Source: Candidatus Altimarinota bacterium
Lineage (GTDB): Bacteria > Patescibacteriota > Gracilibacteria > UBA4473
Reading direction: 5' to 3'
Length of the DNA: 64,000 nt
Assembly (NCBI GenBank): GCA_018608565.1
Contig: JABAZT010000020.1
Location: 60,202-124,201, forward strand
Shown here: positions 4,627 through 31,024 of the stretch, piece after piece
How positions within the stretch are numbered: the first letter of the stretch is position 1
How the letters are laid out: each line of letters begins with the position of its first letter
The notes under the pieces: generated by a model
What the model saw: the letters and a program-made list of their open reading frames with translations, nothing else
Database searches by the model: none
What the model was told of the DNA's origin: nothing
Program-made: the position numbers and the translations under genes

Positions 4627-4707
4627 AAACTTTTAAACCAAGTAAAAAAGAGACATTCCAAATGGTAATGCCTCTTATTCGTATTTCTTTTCCTTCACTT
4701 GTCATCC

Positions 4708-6861
4708 CTACCGTCGCTTCACCGTTACTCGTTTCTGAATCTTAGAAACAATTCCTCGATCATTGATCATCTTCAACTGTACCAAATACGTTCCAGGATT
4801 TTCATAGAGATGAATAGGCTTAAACGTCTGAGCTTTTTGCCCATCTCCAAAATCCCAATGATACTCTACCGCTACTCCCTGTGAAGGAGACGCATCAAAC
4901 TGAATCTCAAGTGGCGCAAATCCAGCCTCCGGAAACATACTAAAATCAGCAACCAATGCAGGAGGTCTAACCGATATATAGGTAATAGAGGAAGATTGTT
5001 GTCCAAGCGTATCAATAACCGTAAGTTTTACAGGAAAAGTTCCAAGATTTCGAAACAAGTAAGAAATTTTTGCTCCATAGTGAATAGGGTCTTCCCCTGG
5101 AAATTCCCACACATAATCAATAATTTCACTTGTATCAGTCGCGGAACCAGATCCATCAAACTCAACCGAAAGAGGAACCGAACCAGACAACTGATTCGCT
5201 GTAATTTTGGCTCTTAGTCCGGCTTCTCCCACAATCACTCGTCGAACGGCTTCAAATTCGTCTCCATTCGAAGTTGTAATCCGTAGATGTACTACATATC
5301 GACCTGGAGTTCTATAGATCTTTGTAACTTTTTGACCAAAGTCATCCGAAATCCCATCATCATCAAAATCCCATTGCCAATCAATAGCTCCATCAACCTT
5401 CGAGGTAGAAGCATCAAACTCAACTTCAAATGGAACCCCTCCCTGTAACACATCATCCTTATCCGCAGGAGGATCCGTCACAATAATGACATCTTGAGAC
5501 TTAGCACGATCACGAATATTCACAGTTTCGGTCACTCGATGTCTCTCTCCCAGATCATTTTCTACGGTAAGAGTTACATCATACTCTCCCTCTGTTCGAA
5601 AAATACGACGAATACTAGAACCTAAAGTAGTGTCCTTTTCTCCTTCAATAAACCATTCATACTTGGTAATAACACCATTTTCTACAAATGAATTTTTTCC
5701 TGACATCACCAATACAAACGGAGCCTCTCCATCAAACCCAACCTCAGAAGTAATCTTGGCTTCAATGCTTGGACGCCCTCCTTCTACCACAATTGTTTTT
5801 TGTGTTAGTGAGTAATCTCTCTGACTTCCCGTTACTCGTAATTTCACCACATGTTCGCCAATACTACTAAAATCTCGTGAAATAATTTCGGGACTCGTTT
5901 GTTGAAACTCATAATCCCCGTCATCATCAAAATCCCATTCATAGAGTATTACTTTCCCATCAGGGTCCGTAGAATTAGAAGCTGAAAATTCAACCGAAAG
6001 CGGGGAAACCCCTTGCTCTACATTTGAAGTAATTTCTGCAAATACTCCGACATTTTCAATCACCACCTCACGCGTCGTTTCAAACACTTCTCGCTCTCCA
6101 TTAGCGTTCTGAAATTCGATCTTAGCTAGTACATCAAAAATACCATTATTCTCCCCCTTATCCATAAATCGATTCGCTACTTGATACCCATTGGCATCTA
6201 TAATTCCATCTCCATCAAAATCCCAACTCACCTGACGAACAGAGGAAAGATCCCCCCCAAATTTTGCTTTAAGTCGCTCTTCTAGATCAAAATCAATGGT
6301 AATCGGAGCTTGTAAGCCAATAACACTTGGTGGATCCGTCGCCACCAGAGAGTTATCCTGTTCCACTCGTTTCACCGTATCCGCACTCGCAATAGCAAGA
6401 TACAGACCAATAAACAAACCAAATATCAAAGCAAATATAGTCACATAAAGGACCATTTTCTTCAAAATAGGACCTCTCTTTGGAGATTCCTTTGGCAAGG
6501 TCATATATCGAAAAACATTCGAAAGCGCAAAGAAAAGGAACACCAATGACAAGAAACCAAAAAGACCACTCGTAAACTGTATCAAAACATTCTTTAGACT
6601 CGTCGCATCAATCCCAAGCAAGTCAAATAAAGGATTTGAAACATAGCCTCCAAACAAAGAGAACAATAAAATCCCATAAAAAACAAATAACAACCCAAAG
6701 ATAACCGCCAAAAAGATCCATATATATTTTATCGGACTAGTCCCAGAAGTATCAACCGCCGTAGGAATAACCCGTTCGTTTGGAACTTCATTAGATTCTG
6801 TTTCCTCTGAATCGTCCAAGAGTTCATCATTGTCTTCGTTTGGAGAAGGTAGTTTTGCCAT
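4708..6861 (-). CDS. multi-pass membrane protein with about 6 PKD-like Ig repeats
   Basis: 717 aa. Acidic N-terminus, 3-4 hydrophobic helices (residues ~45-165), then repeats with 'WDFDGDG', 'WDFDDDG', 'WQWDFDDDG', 'WEFPGE', 'WDFGDG' motifs. Confidence 0.8.
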   Translation of the reverse strand: MAKLPSPNEDNDELLDDSEETESNEVPNERVIPTAVDTSGTSPIKYIWIFLAVIFGLLFVFYGILLFSLFGGYVSNPLFDLLGIDATSLKNVLIQFTSGLFGFLSLVFLFFALSNVFRYMTLPKESPKRGPILKKMVLYVTIFALIFGLFIGLYLAIASADTVKRVEQDNSLVATDPPSVIGLQAPITIDFDLEERLKAKFGGDLSSVRQVSWDFDGDGIIDANGYQVANRFMDKGENNGIFDVLAKIEFQNANGEREVFETTREVVIENVGVFAEITSNVEQGVSPLSVEFSASNSTDPDGKVILYEWDFDDDGDYEFQQTSPEIISRDFSSIGEHVVKLRVTGSQRDYSLTQKTIVVEGGRPSIEAKITSEVGFDGEAPFVLVMSGKNSFVENGVITKYEWFIEGEKDTTLGSSIRRIFRTEGEYDVTLTVENDLGERHRVTETVNIRDRAKSQDVIIVTDPPADKDDVLQGGVPFEVEFDASTSKVDGAIDWQWDFDDDGISDDFGQKVTKIYRTPGRYVVHLRITTSNGDEFEAVRRVIVGEAGLRAKITANQLSGSVPLSVEFDGSGSATDTSEIIDYVWEFPGEDPIHYGAKISYLFRNLGTFPVKLTVIDTLGQQSSSITYISVRPPALVADFSMFPEAGFAPLEIQFDASPSQGVAVEYHWDFGDGQKAQTFKPIHLYENPGTYLVQLKMINDRGIVSKIQKRVTVKRR

Positions 6862-6919
6862 AATAGTTTTTTTTATTTGTATTTTTTAAGCCAACAGTAA
6901 AAGTATAATCCAAAGCATC

Positions 6920-9900
6920 TTATTCAGCCAATAACTCTTCGGCCGCTGGGACTTCATCCTCAACGACAGCATCATGATTTACGGTAATAGTAAGAGAATC
7001 TGAAACTTCCACAACTCCGTCACTCACCGTCAACACAACTCTGTATCGTCCTGCTTTTTCATATTGAAAAGAAACATTCTGACCATAAATCTGTCGACCA
7101 TCACCAAGATCCCATTCAAAATCAAGCGCTCTTGGATAATCAACCGGCGCTTCTCCATAAAGGAAGAAGGTGGTAGAAGAACCTCCAGCAATAGACACTG
7201 GCTCAAATTCACCAATATTTGGATCTATTCCTAGGAGAACTTTCAAAGAAACAATATTATTATCAGTACAGTTATATTGAACTGATTCATAAGACGCTAA
7301 CAAAAGTTTTCGTTCTGTTTCCAATGATTTTCGTTTATCACTGATATAATCCAATGTATCAATCTTTTTTCGTAATAAATCAAGTTGCTCATCGGCCAGC
7401 GGTTTAAGGGTTACTAGCTGAGTACATTCTGTATTGGTTTGAAATGTAGAAGAAATACTAACATCTGCCTGATCTAATACTTCTGGTGCAGAAGGATTTT
7501 CCAAAGATATAGCCGCTTCTTCTACCGAGTTAATTGAATCCAAATAATCAATACTTCCAGTCTCTGGATTAAATCGAGCAAACTTATTTATCCGAGTATC
7601 CCACACCGGCATCGTATGAGGCTGTGGTTCATATTGAGCAAGATCCTGTGGACTAATCTTCAAATCCTCTTGCTTGAGAGTTCCTTCCGGAACAATCGTA
7701 ATTCGTTGATCTCTTGATATTTCAATCAAACCATCTGAAACTGTCAGTACCAAATCATATACTCCCACAGAACCATATCGATGTACGGCATGAGGAATAA
7801 GCGCATGATTTCCATCTCCGAAGTCCCATCGATACGATAGATCATCTCCATCTAGATCACTCGCCTGAGAATAAAAACGAATAGGAGTTCCAACCTCAAC
7901 CGTATGAAATGGTAATATTCCATTGATCGCCACTTGTGGAGGAAGATTTGTATCTGTTCCAGCAGTACCTCTATAGTTTTCCGATTCGGTAATATACATA
8001 TTTACTTCTCGAGTCACCGTCTCAATATCATCCGTCACCGTAAGAGCGACCGTATACTCTCCAGGTTCTGCAAATCGATAATTCAAAAATTTACCAAAAC
8101 GTTTTCCATCAGGGAAGTCCCACTCGAAAGTAAGGTGATCTCCATCATTATCTTGCGCCTCAGCTACAAAATTAAAATTAGTATCCGTCGTCCCCGCATT
8201 TCCAGGCACAGCATGAATCGAAATCAACGGCGCTGAATTTGTCAGCCCACTATCCACCGCCAATGATGAGAGTGAACTCATTGAAGTATGTGCATTATCG
8301 TTATCTACCACATTAACTCGAAAATAATAATCAATCACTCCCGGCAATTGCTGTAGATTGAAATACGTATATGGACTTTCTGTAATTTGAGCCAAAATAA
8401 TTTGCTGATTGTGCAGTGCCTCAAACCGATACTGTACAATTTCTCCATCAACATCTCGTGCATCCGCTTCAACACGTACTCGTTGATATCCAAAGTCAGA
8501 ATCTTCATAAAATCGAACATCATCAATCTCAGGAGGAGTATTATTAACTACAACCTTAAAACTCGTTCGATCTCTTAGATTCGCATTTCTTCTATTCGAA
8601 GCAATTAATTCAACATGATACGTTCCAAGATCTTGAAAAAACTGATTAATCTGAAATTTTTCAACGGCTTTCCCGTTAACCAACCACGTTTCTCTCAAGT
8701 TATCAGTCCCACCACTATCATCCAAAGATTTAGATTCAAACTGGATCGGATCTCCTCGATTAATCTGGGTATAAGGAGTCAAAATTTGTTTATCCCCATA
8801 CGTAATATTCATAATAGCCGTCGGTTTTCCTTCGTTTCGAACATAGACAATCTTAGTCAATTCATTTGTTTCTCCTGAAAACTGATCATAGACTTTCAAC
8901 GTAACAGGGAATGCTCCCGCAACATCAAATGTATTCCGAACCCTTGGTCCATAGATCGATCCATCTTCTTGTGGGAAAACCCATTCAAATTCAGTCGCCT
9001 TTGGACTATTCCCCTGAAAATAAACTATATCTCCAGATTTAATTGAATCCAAACCAATCTGAAAATTAAGTCCTAACGTAGACACAACTTCCATATCTTG
9101 ATCAAAAACCTCAGAAGCATAGACCGTAGTTTGTTCTTTTTGAACCACCTGAAGCCCTACTTCTTTCCGACCAGCAGTTCCAAATTCATAAGTAACCACC
9201 GGACTATACGTTTCTACATACTCACCACCAAAATCCCATCGATATAGTAAATTTTCACGCAAACCATCAATATTTACACTTTCATTCGCATCAAATACAA
9301 ACTCTGCTGGTTTAAGCGGGTTAAATGTCGGACGAATTTTAAACTTAGCCACTGGAATATTCCCTTTAATAACAACCGTGATCGTATCTTCATCCACAAT
9401 ACGCAGACTATTCTTGACCTTAAGCCGAACGGTATAAGTCCCAGGCTCTTGAAATACAACTCGAATATTTTCTGAATCAAACGGATCAAAACATCCAGCC
9501 CCCCCCTCACAGGACCATTCATGACTGGCAATAGTTCCAACAATCGTACGAGAGTTATTTCCTGAAAAACGCATCGGCTCATCCACTCTTCCTTGAGTTT
9601 TCACCCCAGAGATAACGGCTTCAAGCGCGCCAACTATAACTTCTTTCGTATACGTTTTTCGTCCCCCATCTACATTTTGTGAGTTAGCTCTGATAATATA
9701 TTTACCAGACTCTCCATAAATATGAGTAAAATCTCCCCTCGATCCATCACTCGTATCGAGATTTCGAGAAGTTCCATCTCCCATATCCATTTTTACATAT
9801 CCAGGAAGCGTAAATTGTATCAAAACGCCTTTCTTCCCAGTCTCCAAAGGAACAGAAACTCCATCCCCATAATCTACTACATCATCACCACTCACTACAA

Positions 9901-14601: not shown

Positions 14602-14727
14602 AATCCACCCCCTGCCCCCTCCTTTATCAAGGAGGGGAATCAGCACAAGTCTCCCTTGCTTAAGGTGAATTGTGCTTCTAGCACAAGAGAGTATCCCCTG
14701 GGGGAAAAAGGGAGATTTAGAGGGATT
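14602..14727. repeat. MITE-like dispersed element, copy A
   Basis: Shares the core 'aaggtgaattgtgct.ctag.acaagagag', 'tttatcaagg.ag' and the end motif 'gagatttagagggatt' with copy B (47963-48118) and the partial copy at 15637-15662. ORF 14530..14730 is an artefact of this element. Confidence 0.7.
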
Positions 14728-15227: not shown

Positions 15228-15668
15228 TCATCGAATCCTTAAAGCCAAATAATCATTACACTTCAAAATCACAGCATTATGACCAGCCCCTAGATATTCA
15301 AATTCAAAAAAACCTTGGTGATCTTCTAAGTAATCTGAAATTTGATCTACAAATCCTGAATTCAAAACAAAATCAGCCGCACGATTATTAGCCTGTGTAG
15401 AAGCATAAGAATTAGAACGAGCAACCTCCAAGCCCTCTTTAAATGTTATTTTCTTAGATTCAATCTCCTTACTACACCGAAATGAAATCAAATTTATAAA
15501 TTTAGACAAAAAACCAGTAAGTCCTTTTTCTTTATTATCTGAATGACAGTCAAACCTTTCCATATAAAACAAAAATAACAACAAATGAGCGAAAAGTAAA
15601 GAGGGATCTTCGCATAAAAAAATCATTTCCTCCTTCTCAAAGGGAGATTTAGAGGGATTTATCTTCAC
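15228..15668 (-). CDS. N-terminal part of the kinase-like reading frame (Gly-rich loop), ends at an in-frame TGA
   Basis: 146-aa ORF. The first 14 codons derive from a repeat fragment, so the likely start is M15 (about 15626). The C-terminus 'YLGAGHNAVILKCNDYLALRIR' resembles the Gly-loop and beta3 of a kinase N-lobe. Confidence 0.45.
   Translation of the reverse strand: MKINPSKSPFEKEEMIFLCEDPSLLFAHLLLFLFYMERFDCHSDNKEKGLTGFLSKFINLISFRCSKEIESKKITFKEGLEVARSNSYASTQANNRAADFVLNSGFVDQISDYLEDHQGFFEFEYLGAGHNAVILKCNDYLALRIR
15637..15662. repeat. partial (end-only) copy of the MITE-like element
   Basis: 'aagggagatttagagggattt', identical to the right end of copy A. Confidence 0.6.
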
Positions 15669-17765: not shown

Positions 17766-17841
17766 GGGCCGGTAGCTCAGTGGTTAGAGCAGGGCGCTCA
17801 TAACGCCTTTGTCGCTAGTTCAATTCTAGCTCGGCCCACCA
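17766..17841 (+). tRNA. tRNA with CAT anticodon, elongator type (Ile2-lysidine-like or Met), CCA encoded
   Basis: Manual cloverleaf, 76 nt. Acceptor GGGCCGG/TCGGCCC, D arm gctc-agtggtta-gagc, anticodon loop ctCATaa, T arm gctag-ttcaatt-ctagc. G1-C72 pair and no GGG/CCC anticodon stem, so not an initiator. Closely resembles E. coli ileX, including C4-G69 and C5-G68. Confidence 0.9.
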
Positions 17842-19481
17842 CCATCTTCTAAATCAAGGTTCAAAGTCTCATTAATACCTTTAGAATCAGCATAATCGGT
17901 TCTGACTATGTTTTTGAGCTTCCATTCGTCAGGTTTGAACCTCAACCAGAGGGTAGTAACTACTTTTTTCTTCCCAGCTGTATCGTACTCAGTACAAACA
18001 TTGACTCGATCGACAAGCAATTGCATGATCCAACGCTTTTTATCATGATCTAAATTCTTCATAAGTGTTTTTACTTTGTTTTTTGTATCAGTGATTTCCT
18101 TTACGTTAACGTGTAATTCCGAGAGGGTTTCAAGTTCTTTTTCGAGACCTTCTTGATATTCTATTTGTACTTCAATTTCCGTTTCAAGTTTTGGTGCCTG
18201 CCTTTGAAAGACTTCATCACTAATTTTTCCTTCTATCATCTTATTTTCAAGACTACATCGTTTACTTTGTAGATCTCGTAGTTTTTTCTTAGTATTGTCT
18301 AGTTGTTCTTGAAGCGTTCCTGCTTTGCTTTTTTCAATTTGTTTCCGATAATACTCTTCTACAAAAACGGATGGATCATCAAAAGCCTCTGTAATCCTCC
18401 TCCAGACGAAATCTTCTAGCGGCTTACTAGGAATTTCATTTACTTTTTGCTTTACCCCAAGATGAGTGAATGATTGTCTTCTATAGCTAGAACCTCCTTT
18501 GCTTCGCCCTGCTCCTACAAATTTTTGTGGTGGATCATAATCCATGTCATAGAGCTTTCCAGAGAGGAGGTATGACGTACTCTTCCTTCCTCCAAGGTTT
18601 TGCTTTCGTTGTTCTTGTGCAAAGGAAAACAATGTGTCAGAGATAATTTCAGGACATGCTCCGTATTCCCATTCATCCTCTGGAAGTTTATCTTTAGAGT
18701 CTGAATCCGTATAGGAAACAACATACCTTCCTAAATAGTGTGTACATTTGAGGATTGTTTCTATTTTTTCTGCGTCCCAGATCATGTTCTTTTTTGCTCT
18801 GGTGTGTTTTCCAAGAGGAATAGCCTCAGCATTAAGTTCATTCGATATCATACGTTGCCCTTTGCCTTTATAGACATAAGAATTAAAGATTCGCTCAATA
18901 ACCGCTACTTCTTCAGGAATTGGCTCTAATACGCTCCCTTTTCCCAGAGGGCTTGCCACTTTGTCGTATCCATAAGGAATACTGCTTCCAACGTAGTTTC
19001 CTGATTGGGCTGATGCGATTTTTCCTGTTTGTGTTCTACCCTTAATTAATTCTCTCTCAAATTCAGCAAGAGCTCCAAATATTTGGAATATCAACCTTCC
19101 CATTGGACCGTGGAAATCAATGTTTTCTTGAAGAGAAATAAAGCTTGTTTCGTTTTTCTTAAGCTCATCTAAGAACTGGAGAAGATGCCTGAGATTTCGG
19201 CTCATACGATCAATTTTCCATACAAGCACTGCATCTACTTTTCTAGCCTTTACGAGTTCCATCATTTTTTGATAGGCGGGACGATTTAGATCCGATCCAG
19301 AACCAGTATCTTGAAAAACCCATTCGTCTTTTGTAATAAGATTGAGTGCGGGGTTATTTTCAACGTAATCAATCAGCTTATTCTGCTGATCACCAAGACT
19401 GTAACCATCTCGTTGTTGTTCTTGCGTAGAGACTCGTATGTATATCGCTACTCTCCGTTTAGATTCATTATTTGATAACAT
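17826..19481 (-). CDS. large serine recombinase (integrase)
   Basis: 551 aa. N-terminal resolvase domain 'VAIYIRVSTQEQ...', a recombinase domain and a C-terminal coiled coil. The last 5 codons plus the stop overlap the tRNA 3' end by 16 nt. Confidence 0.9.
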   Translation of the reverse strand: MLSNNESKRRVAIYIRVSTQEQQRDGYSLGDQQNKLIDYVENNPALNLITKDEWVFQDTGSGSDLNRPAYQKMMELVKARKVDAVLVWKIDRMSRNLRHLLQFLDELKKNETSFISLQENIDFHGPMGRLIFQIFGALAEFERELIKGRTQTGKIASAQSGNYVGSSIPYGYDKVASPLGKGSVLEPIPEEVAVIERIFNSYVYKGKGQRMISNELNAEAIPLGKHTRAKKNMIWDAEKIETILKCTHYLGRYVVSYTDSDSKDKLPEDEWEYGACPEIISDTLFSFAQEQRKQNLGGRKSTSYLLSGKLYDMDYDPPQKFVGAGRSKGGSSYRRQSFTHLGVKQKVNEIPSKPLEDFVWRRITEAFDDPSVFVEEYYRKQIEKSKAGTLQEQLDNTKKKLRDLQSKRCSLENKMIEGKISDEVFQRQAPKLETEIEVQIEYQEGLEKELETLSELHVNVKEITDTKNKVKTLMKNLDHDKKRWIMQLLVDRVNVCTEYDTAGKKKVVTTLWLRFKPDEWKLKNIVRTDYADSKGINETLNLDLEDGGGPS

Positions 19482-20863: not shown

Positions 20864-21721
20864 ATGGAAGATCGAAAAAAAGAAATCGGTAAAAATATTC
20901 GAAACACTCGAGAACAGTTGGGGCTTTCGCAGAGCCAGCTTGCTGAAAAGGTTGGGAAGAAATCGACAGCATTTATTGCCTACGTAGAAGCAGGAGAGCG
21001 TAATATAAGCACTTTAGATCTACTCACGATCGCACGAGTACTAGAAACAACAGTTTCAGAGTTGGTAGGAGAAGTCGAAACCAGCGATGCAAAAGTATCA
21101 ATGGCTCTTCGATCTGATCTTGGCCTCAATTCTAAAAATCGAGAAAAGGTGATTGGATATTATGAATTTTTACGATCGAAAGAGGACTCTGGGGATAATG
21201 AAAAAGTATCCATCACAGATCCTCGATACAAGGAAGCTGAAGCAAAGGCTCATGAGGTATGGAAGGAATTAGGCGAGTCGGAGGTGCCTACCAATCTACA
21301 GTCGATAGTTAAAAAACTGGGAATTCCTGTAAAAAAAGTGGAAGGAATTGATATTGAAGGACTTGCTTTTTCTTCTCGGGGAGGAGAAGTTTTTATTATG
21401 TTCAATGGGAGCGATCCATTAGCTCGTCGTCGCTTTACCGTGGCTCATGAAATTGGTCATTTTCTCTTGGATCACATTCCTATTGAAGGAGCGACTGAAC
21501 AAATCTCTCAAAACGCACAAGAAAAAGAAGCCAATACTTTTTCTAGCCACCTACTTGTTCCTCGAGCTGATCTTAAAGAATTTGTTAAAAATAAGAATAA
21601 AACACTTGAGGATATTGTTGGTCGCTACAATGTGAGCAAGGAAGTTGCGACTTATGCAGTTTTAAATACCCGAGGGATACTTGATAAACTTGCCCTAGAT
21701 CCTGATTCAGGAGGGTTTTAA
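20864..21721 (+). CDS. XRE-family HTH fused to ImmA/IrrE-type (M78) zinc metallopeptidase
   Basis: 285 aa. N-terminal 'IGKNIRNTREQLGLSQSQLAEKVGKKSTAFIAYVEAGERN' and C-terminal 'VAHEIGHFLLDH' (HExxH). Confidence 0.85.
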   Translation: MEDRKKEIGKNIRNTREQLGLSQSQLAEKVGKKSTAFIAYVEAGERNISTLDLLTIARVLETTVSELVGEVETSDAKVSMALRSDLGLNSKNREKVIGYYEFLRSKEDSGDNEKVSITDPRYKEAEAKAHEVWKELGESEVPTNLQSIVKKLGIPVKKVEGIDIEGLAFSSRGGEVFIMFNGSDPLARRRFTVAHEIGHFLLDHIPIEGATEQISQNAQEKEANTFSSHLLVPRADLKEFVKNKNKTLEDIVGRYNVSKEVATYAVLNTRGILDKLALDPDSGGF

Positions 21722-23858: not shown

Positions 23859-24872
23859 TTAAGTTCGCTCCACAGCCTCTTGCAGATCCTCAATCCTATG
23901 CTGAGTATAAATAGCCGTCGTATTGATATTCGAATGTCCTAGGATTTGAGCTAGTCCAACCATATCATTGGGATTGGCTTGTAAGTATCGATAGGCGAAA
24001 GAATGTCGTAGTTTGTGTGGGCTACAGGGGATTCCTACTTTCTTTGAGTACTTTTCAACGATCTTATTCGTAGCCAGAACCGTCAATATCCCCCTCTGAC
24101 CAATAAAAAGAAATCCCTCGTTCTTTTGAATTTGATTTTCATAGAACTCTAGATGCTGTCTAACGAGAGATCTCAGTCGGTTGTTAAGCGGAACCGTTCG
24201 AGTTTTATTTCCTTTCGTATTTTGGATCAGGAGCGTTCCTTTTCTCTCAGATAGATCAACATGCCTTTTCTCAATAGAAACCACCTCAGAGGCTCGTAAA
24301 CCAGCAGAGAGCATGAGTTCTATCATGCATAGGTCTCGAATATTTCCAATCAGCTCTACCTCCTTTATTAATTTACGAGATTCTTGAGAGGACAGACCTT
24401 TTGGAGATAGGCTCTGTTGAGGAATAGATCGAATTCCATCCGTTGGATCATTTTGAAGGATCTTCTGTTTTAAAGCAGTCTTAAAGAATATTCTCAGGTG
24501 TGTAAGCCTCCGATTAATCGTAGCGGGCAAGAGTTCTTTGTTTTGGCAGGAAGTCCGATATTCGATAATGTCTCGAGGTATAACTCGCTGAAATTCAAAG
24601 CTTTCTCCGTTCATGGACTCATACCAGCTTAAAAAATCTTTCAGATCGTTCGAGAGAGCAATAAAGGTGTTGTCTGAAAAATCCCTCTGCGAAAGACTCT
24701 GTAAGACTGTTTCTAGATCTTTTGATTGAATACACTTGGAGATTTTCTGAGGACTTAGAATTAAGTTCATGAGACAAAGGGTTATTTGATCTATTTTAAA
24801 GCCTTGAAAGGGCTTTTGGCTACCAAATAACGACAAACTATTCTCTTCTCCGAGCGAGTGGGTGCGCCTCAA
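23859..24872 (-). CDS. tyrosine recombinase / integrase (XerC/D-like)
   Basis: 337-aa ORF. 'LSAGLRASEV' (Arg I), 'HKLRHSFA' (HxxR), 'LGHSNINTTAIYTQ' (His and catalytic Tyr). The true start may be the internal M35. Confidence 0.9.
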   Translation of the reverse strand: MRRTHSLGEENSLSLFGSQKPFQGFKIDQITLCLMNLILSPQKISKCIQSKDLETVLQSLSQRDFSDNTFIALSNDLKDFLSWYESMNGESFEFQRVIPRDIIEYRTSCQNKELLPATINRRLTHLRIFFKTALKQKILQNDPTDGIRSIPQQSLSPKGLSSQESRKLIKEVELIGNIRDLCMIELMLSAGLRASEVVSIEKRHVDLSERKGTLLIQNTKGNKTRTVPLNNRLRSLVRQHLEFYENQIQKNEGFLFIGQRGILTVLATNKIVEKYSKKVGIPCSPHKLRHSFAYRYLQANPNDMVGLAQILGHSNINTTAIYTQHRIEDLQEAVERT

Positions 24873-24876
24873 TAGA

Positions 24877-24976
24877 TTATTTAGAGAGTTTTCTATCCCT
24901 TAATTCCCTAAAAAACACCCTAGGGGTATTCAGATTCCCCAATAGTCTCTAAAGAATGGTTATTATTTAGAGAGTT
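24877..24976 (+). repeat. two direct copies of 'ttatttagagagtt' plus one inverted partial copy upstream of the integrase
   Basis: Exact 14-mers at 24877-24890 and 24963-24976. Inverted 'tctctaaa' lies near 24946. Confidence 0.6.
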
Positions 24977-25110
24977 CTTTTTTAAGCGAGTTCTTTAATT
25001 TTCATGATCTAAGCTCTATTTTATTTCATTTAAATTGGAAAATAATGTTCAATTTATCCTCTCCCCCCCCATACCCCCAATTTCGACTCGGTATACAATA
25101 TTTTGAAGCA

Positions 25111-25163
25111 TTTCAACGAGTTAACAGAGGACACTATTAAACGAATTAGGAATAAAAACTACT
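25111..25163 (+). repeat. direct repeat, left copy (36 bp perfect, about 52 bp with 3 indels/mismatches)
   Basis: 'tttcaacgagttaacagaggacactattaaacgaat' is identical to 29051-29086. The extension '..agga.t.aaaaactact' is also shared. Confidence 0.85.
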
Positions 25164-25292
25164 CACTTGTTCGCTATAGTTTGCGGATTGAAATTTTGAG
25201 TGTGAAGCTATAAGGGATTATTTCGATTCAAGATTGACACAGGGGGCTTGAGAGGTAGTCAACAGGGGATGAAGTAATAAATAGACGATGTA

Positions 25293-26216
25293 TCAGCAAT
25301 TTTTAAGTCCACAATCTTCACCGATGACTTCTAATTCGAGGGTTACATGCCCTACGTTATATGATGAGAATACTTTCCTGATACGATCTTTCATCTCTTT
25401 TTGGTTCTCCCATTGTCCTTTCCGAACAACGATGTGACAAGAGCCAATATTATTCGCTCCATCGAGTGACCAGATATGCAAATCATGAACTTCAGAAATT
25501 GCTTTATCGCTCTGTAACCCTCTTATAATTGCTGTATCATCCACATCATTAGGTACTCCTTGCAAGAATAGATGTGTTGCCTTACTCCCGCTCCGAATAC
25601 CATGGAAGAATATCCAGATAGAAATTCCTAAAGCTAGCAAGGGATCGATGATATACCACTCCGTAAAATAAATAATGATACTTCCAACTAAAACCACGCA
25701 CCACCCCAGCAGATCTTCTAGCAAGTGAAGAGAGATAACTTTTTCATTCATCGTTTTTCCCTTTTGGATTTTCCATACAGCAATCCCATTAATAAGGACT
25801 CCGAATACCGCAAAAATAAACATAATTTTACTTTGTACTTCCGCTGGCTCTTGAAGCCTCCCAATCGCTAAGTATCCCATAAAAACTGCTCCTATAATAA
25901 GTATCAAGCTATTAATCAATGCACTGAGGAGAGAGAACCGTTTATATCCATAGCTAAAAGACTTACTCCGCTTTCGTTGTCCTATCTTGGCAAAGAGCCA
26001 GGCGAAGGCTATCGCCAAGGCATCTCCCATGTCATGCAGTGCATCTGAAAGTAGTGCAATGCTGTTACTGAGGATTCCTCCTATCAACTCGATGATAGCA
26101 AAGCTGAAATTGAGACAGAACGCGATTCCAAGATTCTTAGTCTCCTCCGATTCTTGATGATGATTCGAGCAACTACAGGGCATTTTTTTTCTTTTTAAAT
26201 GGACAAGGAAGAGCAA
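25293..26216 (-). CDS. cation diffusion facilitator (CzcD/ZitB-like) metal efflux transporter
   Basis: 307-aa ORF with probable start at 'MPCSCSNHHQESEE' (about 26183). TM helices with 'LLSDALHDMGDA' and the C-terminal 'HDLHIWSL...HVTLELE' CDF signature. Confidence 0.85.
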   Translation of the reverse strand: MLFLVHLKRKKMPCSCSNHHQESEETKNLGIAFCLNFSFAIIELIGGILSNSIALLSDALHDMGDALAIAFAWLFAKIGQRKRSKSFSYGYKRFSLLSALINSLILIIGAVFMGYLAIGRLQEPAEVQSKIMFIFAVFGVLINGIAVWKIQKGKTMNEKVISLHLLEDLLGWCVVLVGSIIIYFTEWYIIDPLLALGISIWIFFHGIRSGSKATHLFLQGVPNDVDDTAIIRGLQSDKAISEVHDLHIWSLDGANNIGSCHIVVRKGQWENQKEMKDRIRKVFSSYNVGHVTLELEVIGEDCGLKNC

Positions 26217-26727
26217 GGAAGATAAGTACGGTTGGAATTAGATTGGCGATAAAATGCCACCAAACCCGAAAATTGGTCAGTGCGACCCTATCATATATAT
26301 CGGTTCCATACGGTTGGAAATATCCAAAGAGAGTACTCATTCCAATAGGTTGGTGTAAATAGTATGCAGTACAAAATAACATTATGTGTTCAAATAGATG
26401 AATAACTTGAATCCAAAATGCCCATTTAGTGTATTTGTTGCGAATAAAAATCTGAAGTCCGATTATTCCTATTAAAAACAAGGTATTTCCAATTAAATGT
26501 AACGACTCAACGCCAAGACGAAAAACACGATGATAATCCTCTTCTCCTGGAGCAATTCGTTCCCCAAGCATCCAAACAAGTTCTGTTGCCCAAGGGGTCA
26601 TATATGGCATATTTCGAAATCCTCGAAACCATTCCCAAAGTTGGATAAAATGTTCTGCAAAATGAAAAAGTTGAAATATGAGCAATGCAGATACAAAACT
26701 CGCCACGATTATTTTTACGGTCTTCAT
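26173..26727 (-). CDS. polytopic membrane protein with paired His motifs
   Basis: 184 aa. 'HFAEH' and 'HLFEH' lie within TM segments. Start overlaps the upstream gene's stop (ATGA). Confidence 0.5.
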   Translation of the reverse strand: MKTVKIIVASFVSALLIFQLFHFAEHFIQLWEWFRGFRNMPYMTPWATELVWMLGERIAPGEEDYHRVFRLGVESLHLIGNTLFLIGIIGLQIFIRNKYTKWAFWIQVIHLFEHIMLFCTAYYLHQPIGMSTLFGYFQPYGTDIYDRVALTNFRVWWHFIANLIPTVLIFLALPCPFKKKKNAL

Positions 26728-27167
26728 CGTGAATTAGAGTTAGGGCTATTAGAGAGGTGAGCCATGAAATCACTCATAAGAACTCCAGACACTGTTTTTT
26801 GATGACTTCCATCTGCTTCAAAAAATATCCCTGTATGCTTGACGGTTACGCCATAGGTTCTTCGTAATTCTAGCTCTGTATCAAAATCGGCTATGAGAAT
26901 TGCTGTGTTTTTTGGCAAAATTTGCTGATTTGAAGTGATTTGTTCAGCAAGACGCTTACATCCAGGACACCAACTTGCTCCTGCGAATACAGCAAATTTA
27001 TTACCTGATTTTTTCAAAGATTCCAACCTGTCGGCAGAATAGTTCTCCGCATATCCATGAGCCTTGCTTTTGATGGCAATTGATGACTGGTTTGATGTTG
27101 AAGTAGTGCTTTCTGTTCCACAGCCAGTAAAGATAAGAACGGTTAAGATTAATAGTAAGTATTTCAT
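26724..27167 (-). CDS. thioredoxin-fold lipoprotein (TlpA-like)
   Basis: 147 aa with lipobox 'LIFTGC' and active site 'WCPGC'. Confidence 0.75.
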   Translation of the reverse strand: MKYLLLILTVLIFTGCGTESTTSTSNQSSIAIKSKAHGYAENYSADRLESLKKSGNKFAVFAGASWCPGCKRLAEQITSNQQILPKNTAILIADFDTELELRRTYGVTVKHTGIFFEADGSHQKTVSGVLMSDFMAHLSNSPNSNSR

Positions 27168-27238
27168 ATAAAAGGTGGTTATAATAGTTAAAAGAATAAG
27201 GGGCAGAAAAAGATTCTGCCCGAGTACATATAGCTATA

Positions 27239-27568
27239 TTAAGATTCTTCCTTGAGGGTGAAGTTATAAATTCCTGTACTAATCACTCCGAAAAGAAAAA
27301 ATAATATAAATACTAGTAAAATTCCAAAGAGATCCATAGAAAAAGGAACATGAGGACTAAATATCGATGAAATATCAAAACCATGTAAAAGTAGGTTTAT
27401 CAGTCCTGTATATGCACGATCAGTCATCATGAGGACAAGAAGAATTGAAAGAATATAAAACAAGCTTCCTGTAGTCCCTAATGCAAAGCCAAACTGAAAA
27501 GAATTAATTTTTTTCATTTTTAATTTAGATGTGAGTAATACTGAAACGCTATTGAAGCATTTGATCAA
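27239..27568 (-). CDS. small membrane protein
   Basis: 109-aa ORF with likely start at M18 (about 27517) and 2-3 TM helices. Confidence 0.4.
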   Translation of the reverse strand: MIKCFNSVSVLLTSKLKMKKINSFQFGFALGTTGSLFYILSILLVLMMTDRAYTGLINLLLHGFDISSIFSPHVPFSMDLFGILLVFILFFLFGVISTGIYNFTLKEES

Positions 27569-28328
27569 TTTGCCCTTTTATCTGTGCAAAAGGGAGTGCG
27601 CCAGGTACGAATGAAATATCACCTGTTTTGTTATTTACGATAAAACTTCCTGGAGTACCAGTTACACCTGCTTTCGCTCCTTCTGCCATATCTTTTTTCA
27701 CTTTGGCAACAAATTTTTCTGATTCATAACACTCATTAAAAGCTCCAACATCCACCCCAATCTGCTGTGCAAGTACTGGAAGTTGGTTTGCATCAAGCCC
27801 CCCGTTGGATTTGGTTGTTTCGTAGACTAGATCTGTATATTCCCAAAATTTATCACCTCCTGCTATATCTCCTACACACTCAACGGCAGCCGCTTCTTGA
27901 GTAGCAAGAGGATCATGAAATCCAAGTGGGAAATGTCGATAGACCCAATTTACTTGTTCTTTATACTCTTCCATAACCTCCTTCATGGTGTTATGAAATC
28001 TCTTACAGTAAGGACACTCAAAATCAGAATATTCAATGATCGTGACAGGTGCATCAGGATTTCCTCTTACATATTCCCCATCCGTTTCTTTTTTAAGGTT
28101 CTTCTGAGCCATCTCTTGTTGGGCTTTTTCTTTCTCGATTTGTGCTTGTTGAGATTTTTTCTGCTGTTCCTGTGCATATTTTTCCATTGCAGCGCCTAGG
28201 TCCTCCTGAGAAAGCTCTCCTCCCTTGCTACCTCCCATCTGAAGTCCTAAAAACACAAGAGATCCAGTGATTAAAAGAGTAGCAAAAATAATGCTGTAAA
28301 TAAGATTGTTGTTTGATTTATCTGACAT
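27549..28328 (-). CDS. membrane-anchored DsbA-family thiol:disulfide oxidoreductase
   Basis: 259 aa. N-terminal TM, Q/E-rich linker, 'FECPYC' CxxC motif and 'GTPGSFI' cis-Pro loop region. Confidence 0.8.
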   Translation of the reverse strand: MSDKSNNNLIYSIIFATLLITGSLVFLGLQMGGSKGGELSQEDLGAAMEKYAQEQQKKSQQAQIEKEKAQQEMAQKNLKKETDGEYVRGNPDAPVTIIEYSDFECPYCKRFHNTMKEVMEEYKEQVNWVYRHFPLGFHDPLATQEAAAVECVGDIAGGDKFWEYTDLVYETTKSNGGLDANQLPVLAQQIGVDVGAFNECYESEKFVAKVKKDMAEGAKAGVTGTPGSFIVNNKTGDISFVPGALPFAQIKGQIDQMLQ

Positions 28329-28382
28329 AGTAAAAATACTTAAAGAAATAATTGACGTTTAACATTGTGTGCGAAAATATTT

Positions 28383-28814
28383 TCAAAGCCTCATTACTAC
28401 GGTTTTTGCAATTATTGAGACCCAAGGATCTGGTCTTTTTATAGTGATGATTATAGGTTTTTCATTCACCAGATAATTTTGATTCTGGTTTTTGATAACA
28501 AGACTCTCTCTTGGCTCTGGTGAATCCTTTAGATACTCTTCTTCTTTATTCTGACTATTCGCAAGATTCATATTCCATGCCTTATCAGTAATCTGGCACA
28601 TACTACACTCTTCAGAATGATGGTGTCCCATCTCGTGACAAGGAGTATCCATCTGATGCGGGATTGCATAACAACTCAAACAACCAAGGGTAAGGAGGTT
28701 TACGAGTAATATGAGAACGGAACTAGCCCAGCGAAATACCTTCATGTACCACCATATTAAGCATGAGAGAAATTGGGGCAAATTATAGCGATCTAAAAGA
28801 ATTATTGTTCTCAA
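28383..28814 (-). CDS. His/Cys-rich putative metal-binding lipoprotein
   Basis: 143-aa ORF with likely start 'MKVFRW' (about 28745). Lipobox-like 'LTLGC' and 'CHEMGHHHSEECSMC'. Confidence 0.45.
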   Translation of the reverse strand: MRTIILLDRYNLPQFLSCLIWWYMKVFRWASSVLILLVNLLTLGCLSCYAIPHQMDTPCHEMGHHHSEECSMCQITDKAWNMNLANSQNKEEEYLKDSPEPRESLVIKNQNQNYLVNEKPIIITIKRPDPWVSIIAKTVVMRL

Positions 28815-29050
28815 GAAAAATAGAATCGCCTTACTAAATAGGTCTCTAGGGAAAGATTAACTATGAAAAACCTTCCCAGAATTCGAGAACGGATTTTTAA
28901 ATCAGAGAGGATAAAGCACTATTTTAACCATTATAGAGTTAAACAGTGAATAAAAAAGCCCAAACAAGCTGTATTAAATCTGTTTTGAAGCAAATTTAAT
29001 GCCCCCCTATACCTAATATAAACGACCCGAAAACAGATGATTTAGGATTA

Positions 29051-29102
29051 TTTCAACGAGTTAACAGAGGACACTATTAAACGAATAGGATTAAAAACTA
29101 CT
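29051..29102 (+). repeat. direct repeat, right copy
   Basis: Identical 36-mer at 29051-29086, with the shared extension to 29102. Ends about 50 nt before the first ATG of the next gene. Confidence 0.85.
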
Positions 29103-29117
29103 TTAATTGTTCTTTCG

Positions 29118-30050
29118 TTGAGAAAAATCAAAAGATATACTAGGTTCTATTATATGAAAGAACTATTTCAAACATACCGACCGGGAAGAGACCGAGCTCA
29201 GATAATATCTCGAGCGGAAGATGTGCTACAAAGCTATCAACGACAAGGTTATAAGCTATCCCTCAGACAGTTGTATTATCAGCTAGTAGCTAAAAATCAC
29301 ATTGAAAACTCTGATCGTTCATACAAAATACTCTCTGAGACGATCATGAGAGCGAGAAATGGAGGTCTAATCGACTGGGACTCCATTGAAGATCGAACTC
29401 GAGGAATACGCCAACCAGCTAAGGTTGACGGATTTTCTCAGGCATTGACCAAGACAATGATGAATTATCGACTCGATAGAATGAAAGGACAAGACTACTA
29501 TTTAGAGGTTTGGATCGAAAAAGATGCTGTATCTAATATTGTCTACCGTGTTACCCAAAAGTATGGGATACCTCTAATGGCTAACAAGGGCTACAGTTCT
29601 GCGAGTGCTATGTATGAAGCCCAACAACGATTCAAGAATAAACTGTCAGATAATCCAGCAGAAAATAGGACTTCTAAGGTTTTATATCTTGGGGATCATG
29701 ATCCATCGGGGATGGATATGTTTCGTGATATTACTCAAAGAAATAGGCTTTTTAACGGTTATACTTTTTTTGAACGATTGGGGCTTAACATGGATCAGAT
29801 AGAGGACTTAAAACCACCAGAAAATCCTGCTAAGCTGAAAGATACTAGAGCAAAAGAGTACATAAAAGAGTTTGGACGATCTAGCTGGGAATTAGATGCC
29901 CTTACCCCAAACTACCTAGAAACACTCTTAGAGAATGCGATTTTACAGCATATAGACATAGGTAAATACAACGGGGTACTTGAAGAAGAAAAACAGGACA
30001 AGGCTCGGATGAGCGAAATAATAAAAAAGAACGAAGAAGAGGCTCTGTAG
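29118..30050 (+). CDS. stand-alone Topo VI-A / Spo11-like protein (5Y-CAP + Toprim), Mini-A-like
   Basis: The track ORF starts at TTG; the first ATG is at 29154 (298 aa). Motifs: 'LSLRQLYYQLV' (R-x-x-Y-Y), 'VWIEKDAV' (Toprim Glu), 'LGDHDPSGMDM' (DxDPxG). Confidence 0.6.
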   Translation: MRKIKRYTRFYYMKELFQTYRPGRDRAQIISRAEDVLQSYQRQGYKLSLRQLYYQLVAKNHIENSDRSYKILSETIMRARNGGLIDWDSIEDRTRGIRQPAKVDGFSQALTKTMMNYRLDRMKGQDYYLEVWIEKDAVSNIVYRVTQKYGIPLMANKGYSSASAMYEAQQRFKNKLSDNPAENRTSKVLYLGDHDPSGMDMFRDITQRNRLFNGYTFFERLGLNMDQIEDLKPPENPAKLKDTRAKEYIKEFGRSSWELDALTPNYLETLLENAILQHIDIGKYNGVLEEEKQDKARMSEIIKKNEEEAL

Positions 30051-30403
30051 GTGAAAGGGGGGGCGATAGTAAGAGCTATCTAAGTCTCTCTTCTATCTCT
30101 TTCTCCATTACTAAGCTCTTTTTTAATATCTATAGCTCCCTTATAAGGCTCTTTGACCTATTGAGGTTCAATTCAAGGGGATGCTAGCACTAAAGAATCA
30201 AGAAAATCCTTATTTTATAAGGACATTCTTTTCAACTACTTTGTATCTACGGATCATCAAATACCGATCACCATGCCACTCTTTTTCTCTCTGCATCTGA
30301 TACTGGGCATGAAAGATGTAGAGGTTCTGTTTACTTGGGGTTGTATTACCACATCGTCATAACCTAGATGAAGTTTTATACTTCGTCTTTTTTATAAAAC
30401 ATC

Positions 30404-31024
30404 TCACCATATAAACATTCCATACCAGAGATTAGCCAATACCTCTCTCCAAAAAAAGTAATCCTCCTTCCAATACCGACCATAGTGATACTCTGCTGCA
30501 TGCAACTCAAAAGAATCATCTAAAAACTTCCATCCCAACAACCGAATCCTCGCTAAATGAAAATCATTAGACACCAATACAAAGTCTATTTCATTCTTTT
30601 CATCTATCCAAGAACGATCCACTACCTCTTTCAAATCATTAATAGTTGCCAAAGTTTTAACTCCTTCATAGTCCAAAACAAGATCCTTCTCGGGAATGCC
30701 AACCTCCAGTGCCAATTTCTTCATCACATCCGTCTCATGAGCTCCCTGAGTCGAAGCTCCACCAGAAAACACCAGACAGTCCACCTGATCGTTTTGATAG
30801 AGTTTCAGAGCCGTAACAGTCCGATCATAGAGTGCATGAGATGGAACATCATCTCTCCACACCGCCGCCCCAAAAACAACTGCACAATCAGCCTTCCCTA
30901 CAAAAGATTCATCATAATGACTCAATACCCAAAAAACAGAAATTCCTATCAAAATCACTCCCCCCAACAAACTCAAAATACTCAACTTCAGCAAGACCTT
31001 CATATTTACATTGTCTCCAAACAA
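30404..31024 (-). CDS. DUF218 (SanA/YdcF/ElyC-like) membrane-anchored protein
   Basis: 206 aa. N-terminal TM, then 'DCAVVFGAAVW...PSHALYDRT...LVFSGG...HETDVMK...VSNDFHLAR'. Confidence 0.7.
   Translation of the reverse strand: MFGDNVNMKVLLKLSILSLLGGVILIGISVFWVLSHYDESFVGKADCAVVFGAAVWRDDVPSHALYDRTVTALKLYQNDQVDCLVFSGGASTQGAHETDVMKKLALEVGIPEKDLVLDYEGVKTLATINDLKEVVDRSWIDEKNEIDFVLVSNDFHLARIRLLGWKFLDDSFELHAAEYHYGRYWKEDYFFWREVLANLWYGMFIW

Follow-up and report, generated by a model that had tools for sequence, protein, structure and literature searches.

A repeat-bounded six-gene metal and thiol-redox module inside a tRNA-docked island of a Gracilibacteria genome

The 64-kb stretch of DNA analyzed here (64,000 nucleotides, hereafter the window) belongs to a Candidatus Altimarinota bacterium of the Gracilibacteria (GenBank assembly GCA_018608565.1, contig JABAZT010000020.1, positions 60,202 to 124,201), the genome of which is a metagenome-type assembly of 1.66 Mb in 43 contigs. 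Six minus-strand genes (25164-29049), predicted to serve metal efflux and envelope thiol redox, lie there between two copies of a direct repeat, with a gene for a Xer-like tyrosine recombinase on the left and a gene for the Topo VI-A-like protein Mini-A on the right. The two copies share a perfect 37-nt stretch (25110-25146 and 29050-29086). Past the 37-mer, a single extra T in copy A is followed by 16 nt with one mismatch, to 25163 in copy A and to 29102 in copy B. The extended repeats, both read on the plus strand, measure 54 nt (copy A, 25110-25163) and 53 nt (copy B, 29050-29102), and copy B ends 52 nt 5' of the Mini-A ATG. An earlier note on this DNA, made from the letters alone, had described the repeats as perfect 36-mers extendable to about 52 bp; they do flank the cassette, with one base more on the left and an extended length of 53/54 nt.

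The six genes of the module were assigned to families with Pfam and NCBIfam, and both agree with the description given in the earlier note. Start codons follow the public gene calls, as verified by exact look-up. Reading along the minus strand, the first gene (28383-28745) encodes a lipoprotein of 120 amino acids (aa) as called, with the Cys/His motif PCHEMGHHHSEECSMC (also given as CHEMGHHHSEECSMC); its exact product is in the collection, and no family match was found for it in Pfam, PHROG or NCBIfam. A membrane-anchored DsbA-like oxidoreductase with a CPYC motif follows (27549-28328; PF13462 and PF01323, DsbA/Thioredoxin_4), and then a DUF5676 protein with two transmembrane segments (27239-27517; 92 aa as called; PF18926; exact product in the collection). 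Downstream are a thioredoxin-fold lipoprotein with a WCPGC motif (26724-27167; PF00085; lipobox read from the sequence), a His-rich DUF6008 membrane protein (26173-26727; PF19471, E 1.9e-27) and a ZitB/CzcD-like cation efflux pump of the cation diffusion facilitator (CDF) family (25293-26183; 296 aa as called; PF01545; TIGR01297, 213 bits; exact product in the collection). A terminator-like hairpin predicted on the minus strand at 27201-27221 would divide the module into two transcription units, one formed by the Cys/His-motif lipoprotein, DsbA and DUF5676 genes, the other by the thioredoxin lipoprotein, DUF6008 and CDF pump genes. A promoter-like site, a weak consensus match, lies within the module on the same strand, 5' of the first gene (28921-28950), and the cargo appears to carry its own expression signals. 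Judging from the protein families, the module as a whole would pump divalent metal ions out of the cell and, under metal stress, maintain the correct redox state of cysteines outside the cytoplasm. It includes no recombinase gene, and no transposase was found among its six genes in the list of open reading frames (ORFs), in Pfam or in NCBIfam.

The repeat is confined to the two ends of the module. A pattern search allowing 3 mismatches found it at 2 places only in the window, against a chance expectation of 0.00 (100 shuffles), and BLAST of the site and the adjoining non-coding pieces against the whole genome retrieved the repeat at these 2 places only. The possibility raised earlier, that the repeat is a common regulatory element found upstream of many genes, is contradicted by this count, as is that of a dispersed element of the kind of miniature inverted-repeat transposable elements (MITEs). 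The 129 nt of non-coding DNA that separate repeat A from the CDF stop codon (25164-25292) gave a self-match only in the genome search. A DNA search of 60 relatives returned one marginal match of 33 nt (G024, E 4.4e-4). The only other exact direct repeat of at least 18 nt in the window (14707-14727 and 15639-15659) is part of a MITE-like element. An apparently equal spacing of 236/238 nt from the repeats to the next gene starts vanishes with the publicly called starts, 28745 and 24770.

Similarity between the two sites extends to the left of the repeats. Six to eight C followed by (T)ATACC precede copy A by 47 nt and copy B by 48 nt, in collinear positions, and this motif occurs three times on both strands of the whole genome, twice at these arms. 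The left arm of copy A (25063-25109, plus strand; C-run and ATACC) has diverged from the left arm of copy B (29002-29049, plus strand; C-run and TATACC). The two arms share 33 identities over their 47 and 48 nt (about 69% identity; 52 alignment columns), and only 3 of 5000 shuffles reached as high a score. The right flanks of the two copies are unrelated by alignment. The duplicated site measures about 101 nt and is made up by a diverged left arm abutting a near-identical 53-nt block; identity is 52/54 in the core and 33/52 in the arm (Fisher p = 1.7e-5). A single duplication, whether of a target site or of a copied promoter, should diverge uniformly, and the contrast between arm and core argues against it; the uneven identity along the site points to an exchange between two pre-existing related sites. 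The idea that integration had simply duplicated the core is for this reason too simple, the 69% arm standing beside a near-identical block. The permuted blocks formerly noticed 5' of each repeat are not permuted, the C-run and ATACC being collinear; the string 'ttttgaagca' occurs at different offsets, within chance.

The approximately 100-nt site bears no clear mark of any described site class. The layout is attL/attR-like, since the 53/54-nt block is present at both junctions and a recombinase gene is adjacent. An attachment site of the serine recombinase of the island (see below) was rejected because the copies have no significant match, in either orientation, to 17780-17960 or 30040-30420; comparison of the repeat with the tRNA-Met 3' end, the neighbouring sequence, the tail of the serine recombinase gene and the right end of the island yielded chance matches of 8-11 nt only. 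Integron features were rejected on several grounds, in agreement with what had been said of the cassette before. Both strands of both copies, folded as DNA, reach -3 to -6.5 kcal/mol, with z-scores of -0.01 to +0.93 relative to shuffles, and form no attC-type hairpin; the tyrosine recombinase scores 75.8 bits with the integron integrase model (IntI, TIGR02249; cutoff 265), less than with the XerC and XerD models; and, whereas integron cassettes are mostly promoterless, hold one gene and point away from intI, the module is a six-gene unit with a promoter-like site of its own and a terminator-like hairpin inside it, and it is directed toward the recombinase gene. A transposon with target-site duplication was discarded as well, as there is no transposase and the inner and outer ends have no inverted repeat above chance.

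The module and everything around it are nested in a serine-recombinase island docked at the 3' end of tRNA-Met, a setting that is added here to the earlier description. The tRNA-Met gene (CAT anticodon; 17766-17841, plus strand; found by ARAGORN, and by Rfam with 67 bits) is the left anchor, and the gene of a large serine recombinase (17826-19481, minus strand; PF00239 and PF07508; PHROG 95, integrase) overlaps the tRNA 3' end with its last 16 nt. The best NCBIfam matches of this recombinase are CcrB and CcrC, under cutoff. The right border is a DUF218 host gene (30404-31024, minus strand; PF02698) present in 26/42 genomes of the family. In several relatives of the same family tRNA-Met sits 35-110 nt from the DUF218 gene, which precedes topA, and the island is absent; the DNA from 17842 to about 30400 is therefore taken as a 12.5-kb insertion. 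The insertion includes the serine recombinase gene, an HTH-XRE/ImmA (M78) regulator gene (20864-21721, plus strand; Pfam HTH_3 and Peptidase_M78), genes coding for unknown proteins, the tyrosine recombinase gene, the module and Mini-A. A search for known RNA families from 17.0 to 31.5 kb found the tRNA only.

At eight loci (the window, L031, L032, L034-L037 and L199) the serine recombinase ORF runs with its 3' end into the 3' part of an oppositely oriented tRNA gene, mostly a different one at each locus (Met, Asp, Asn, Arg, Val, Thr, Lys and Asn). The overlap indicates that the C-terminus of the serine recombinase is encoded across the attachment junction. In another genome (L216, G283:C60) the spot beside DUF218 and topA holds a serine recombinase homologue, 37% identical, which overlaps a called tRNA-Val, and the DUF218/topA locus may be a recurrent docking place. 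On the far side of tRNA-Asn in L199 (11922-12278), at a distance of 314 nt, there is a second copy of 43 nt of the tRNA, which suggests a small insertion, or a remnant of one, at the same tRNA.

Homologues of the tyrosine recombinase, 41-54% identical, sit in similar islands. At five loci (L032 and L034-L037) tblastn placed them 3.6-6 kb from a serine recombinase homologue, and the cargo around them varies, including genes of the cyclic-oligonucleotide-based antiphage signaling system (CBASS), RelA/SpoT and methylase genes. Contig C106 of genome G012 also has the tyrosine recombinase and Mini-A genes side by side in divergent orientation, and the gene that separates them there is another one, of 421 aa. 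This arrangement supports the region between recombinase and Mini-A as a seat of variable DNA. The earlier view of the segment as cargo placed in that region is supported, and the region is part of a mobile island. The region upstream of Mini-A in G012 has no similarity to the window repeat, and the small genes that precede the recombinase in relatives have no homologues in the window.

Repeat-bounded cargo was observed in three related islands. In G349 a 73-nt pair (72/73 identical; L031 12489-12561 and 14821-14893) surrounds a 689-aa gene at the distal island end, and the last 13 nt of the repeat are those of the 3' end of tRNA-Asp. In G388 a 74-nt pair (L036 14904-14977 and 16434-16507) surrounds a 435-aa gene, again at the distal end; this repeat has in it a tRNA-like core and 21 nt that copy, perfectly and in inverted orientation, the arm adjoining tRNA-Thr, and a palindromic attP can be reconstructed. 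In G281 six 82-nt direct repeats bound five single-gene cassettes (L222, that is G281:C1:98000-106500, 3554-7896; also L035 565-2887) coding for 278, 293, 100, 92 and 349 aa. Each gene starts 65-90 nt past a repeat, and the repeat has an 18/20 inverted match to the sequence beside tRNA-Val, where the serine recombinase gene ends. The G281 stack, both SCC-like (of the staphylococcal cassette chromosome type) and integron-like in look, is about 6 kb from a tyrosine recombinase homologue. Except for one arm-adjacent match in G388, the repeats of the three genomes are confined to these clusters. They are, on these matches, putative copies of serine-recombinase attachment sites, whereas the window repeats lack such marks: in the tests that were positive for G349, G388 and G281, no inverted 21-mer of the window repeat reached a 16/21 match.

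Both genes flanking the module had been correctly named before. The tyrosine recombinase gene (23859-24872, minus strand; PF00589 and PF02899) is publicly called from 24770 (303 aa; P0121), and its start is 238-340 nt from copy A, depending on the start used. The protein keeps the Arg/His-x-x-Arg/His/Tyr motifs, read from the sequence, and the gene is apparently intact. It scores 172 bits with the XerC model (cutoff 335) and 163 with the XerD model (cutoff 330). A host XerC or XerD was rejected, as the scores are below cutoffs and the gene is part of the island; the likelier host Xer is another tyrosine recombinase, encoded on contig C6 and 31% identical to that of the island. The first possible start codon (TTG 24872) directly follows an in-frame stretch that encodes the family-conserved N-terminal motif NSLNNL, which is itself preceded, 3 codons earlier, by a stop in the same frame (window region 24873-24978). 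A 15-nt coding string from there, ATTATTTAGAGAGTT, recurs 86 nt further upstream in a different frame, and the 5' end of the gene may be rearranged. The lineage is of the Gracilibacteria/Peribacteria type; homologues of the recombinase come from sources named Candidatus Peribacteria or Candidatus Gracilibacteria, and some members of the class read TGA as sense. Mini-A (29154-30050, plus strand; PHROG 6247, E 3.7e-89; 298-aa form, P0001), the last gene of the island, is stand-alone and belongs to a Topo VI-A-like family borne by phages and proviruses (PMC7671362); homologues were located in phage contigs with terminase genes. In clusters drawn at 90% identity, Mini-A, the recombinase and 5/6 cargo proteins have one member each.

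The genome has a second, native CDF-thioredoxin lipoprotein-DUF6008 cluster, about 70 kb away on the same contig and outside the window (G000:C40:156733-158750; L012 9734-11755). Proteins of the module and of the native cluster are 73% (CDF), 56% (thioredoxin lipoprotein) and 73% (DUF6008) identical, and gene order differs; identities of 56-73% rule out a recent duplication of the native cluster. The DUF6008 protein of the module is 67% identical to that of G021. Closer relatives of part of the cargo are found in a marine metagenome contig of 16.9 kb (L199; also L119), which carries the lipoprotein, DsbA and DUF5676 genes, three different membrane or thioredoxin-like genes, and CDF. The module and L199 CDF are 92% identical in protein and 86% in DNA, the DsbA proteins of the module and of L119/L199 83% and 76%, respectively; protein identity falls to 74% for DUF5676 and to 38% for the lipoprotein. 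Breakpoints between L199 and the window are at gene boundaries, and the CDF stop codon is the exact limit of the homology to L199. The L199 operon is the cargo of another island, the serine recombinase of which overlaps tRNA-Asn; neither Mini-A, nor a detectable tyrosine recombinase homologue, nor the window repeat is found in the L199 island. Since the operon exists in L199 without the repeat, the repeat is not the operon's own regulatory DNA. By these comparisons the cargo is foreign and modular, its operon a mosaic in circulation among such islands. Where the window has the thioredoxin lipoprotein and DUF6008 genes (26173-27167), L199 has three others (3396-5292), coding for a 162-aa CPHC thioredoxin-like protein and for two membrane proteins (284 and 181 aa); Pfam gave no match for any of the three. 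Modules of analogous function seem to have been exchanged here, a hint that DUF6008 may be a membrane redox partner of the thioredoxin lipoprotein.

The locus is best explained by insertion of the module through recombination at a dedicated site, a reading to which we give about an even chance. A resident site in the intergenic region between recombinase and Mini-A, some 240-340 nt 5' of the gene for the Xer-like recombinase, would have received incoming DNA, probably circular, which carried one related site of about 100 nt and no recombinase of its own. Reciprocal exchange within the shared 53-nt block would then produce two directly repeated hybrid sites, and the left arms would differ as derived from different parents. 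The adjacent tyrosine recombinase is the most likely catalyst; the reaction would be reversible, with a predicted excision of a 3,940-bp circle. Several observations weigh against this reading. The best dyad of the repeat is 7/11 with a 9-nt spacer, and 457/500 shuffles reach at least 7, so that the repeat lacks the look of a simple Cre/Xer-type core. The exact repeat, searched as a 37-mer or 25-mer, has no match in genome_contigs, metagenome_contigs or viral_contigs, and neither an empty site nor a second insertion is thus seen there. A repeat pair beside the recombinase homologue is found in 0/9 related islands, the closest relatives in the collections are about 54% (recombinase) and 52% (Mini-A) identical, the start of the recombinase gene is equivocal, and 53 nt of identity could also support a crossover dependent on RecA.

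The last point leads to the same Campbell-type insertion of a circle brought about by RecA homologous recombination in a shared non-coding stretch, for example a Mini-A leader or promoter, with the tyrosine recombinase uninvolved. The identical block of 37-53 nt is near the RecA minimum and has weaker homology on one flank, the repeat has no dyad symmetry, and copy B, 52 nt upstream of the Mini-A ATG, is in a promoter or leader position. Yet the stretch of homology is very short, with an abrupt right end, the location directly upstream of a recombinase gene would be a coincidence, and the dissimilar DNA upstream of Mini-A in G012 provides no evidence of a conserved leader; we regard this explanation as rather unlikely. 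Alternatively the repeats may be older than the cargo, cassette-boundary or gene-leading repeats of the island family between which the metal/thiol module replaced former content. The repeat-bounded cargo of G349, G388 and G281 is in line with this, as is the alike geometry, in which genes are read in the direction of the tRNA and a gene begins 50-90 nt past one of the repeats. The window repeat is, however, unlike the tRNA-Met 3' end, the adjoining sequence, the serine recombinase tail and the island right end, and two old array repeats would explain the uneven identity of arm and core less well than a recent exchange does; we consider the replacement of former content unlikely. It is very improbable that the structure arose in assembly, as a repeat by chance, or through a transposase that duplicated its target site. 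The metagenome-type origin and the 43 contigs of the assembly would invite the suspicion; against it, chance expectation is nil, both junctions have unique flanks, the repeat is nowhere else in the assembly, there are neither inverted ends nor a transposase, and 53 nt is far above known target duplications. An exact repeat of 37 nt is shorter than the k-mers usual in final assembly.

A broader proposal can be made, tentative and rather doubtful at present, that the tyrosine recombinase and its site of about 100 nt form a second, internal capture platform in tRNA-docked islands of Gracilibacteria/Peribacteria-type bacteria. If true, the platform would take up and release whole multi-gene modules endowed with a matching site, and the islands would gain cargo at two levels, by two recombinase chemistries.

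Elements of comparable build are known. Cis-mobilisable elements (CIMEs), which lack a recombinase, undergo site-specific accretion beside integrative elements, as with ICESt1 and ICESt3 of Streptococcus thermophilus. The module resembles CIMEs in being cargo free of recombinase, in having directly repeated attachment-type sites, and in having a neighbour that encodes a tyrosine recombinase; as with CIMEs, it is predicted to be excised alone or together with the neighbour. Unlike CIME sites, the window site is found within an island that owes its own docking to a serine recombinase, and it is not the 3' end of a tRNA or other gene. Integron cassettes share with the module a cargo without recombinase and a platform for recombination that adjoins the gene of a tyrosine recombinase, but here the enzyme is not IntI, there is no attC hairpin, and the six genes, with an apparent promoter of their own, point toward the recombinase and form a single unit. 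The large serine recombinase of the host island, which overlaps a tRNA 3' end and has CcrB/CcrC as best matches, and the stacked repeat-bounded cassettes of relatives recall SCC/SCCmec elements; in contrast, the window repeats lack serine-recombinase attachment marks and adjoin a second recombinase, of tyrosine type. Xer-dependent modules, such as integrative mobile elements exploiting Xer (IMEX) and the pdif modules of Acinetobacter plasmids, are similar in that XerC and XerD are the best models for the recombinase and the module is bounded by short repeated sites. Cargo of pdif modules includes metal-resistance genes. Unlike IMEX and pdif modules, the window has no 11-6-11 dif-type dyad above chance, the repeats are direct and about 100 nt long, and the recombinase is island-borne and below the XerC/XerD cutoffs. 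Tycheposons of Prochlorococcus are reportedly tRNA-docked islands of a streamlined genome, the cargo of which, related to the environment, comes in units bounded by repeats. They occur in another host lineage, and tycheposon repeats are tRNA fragments, whereas the window repeats are not. The locus is of a known kind, a cargo lacking a recombinase within attachment-type repeats beside a tyrosine recombinase gene; its nesting in a serine-recombinase island of a bacterium of the candidate phyla radiation (CPR) is unusual, as is a site of about 100 nt that cannot be matched clearly to a described class.

To our knowledge, few routes of gene exchange are recognised in the ultra-small CPR (Patescibacteria) bacteria. 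At this locus a complete adaptive operon, predicted to combine metal efflux and envelope thiol redox, is present as a discrete repeat-bounded unit in a tRNA-docked island. If the adjacent recombinase moves the unit, the locus would offer a simple system for studying the trade of accessory functions in CPR bacteria; if the recombinase is uninvolved, it would still be a clean example of the turnover of mosaic cargo in islands.

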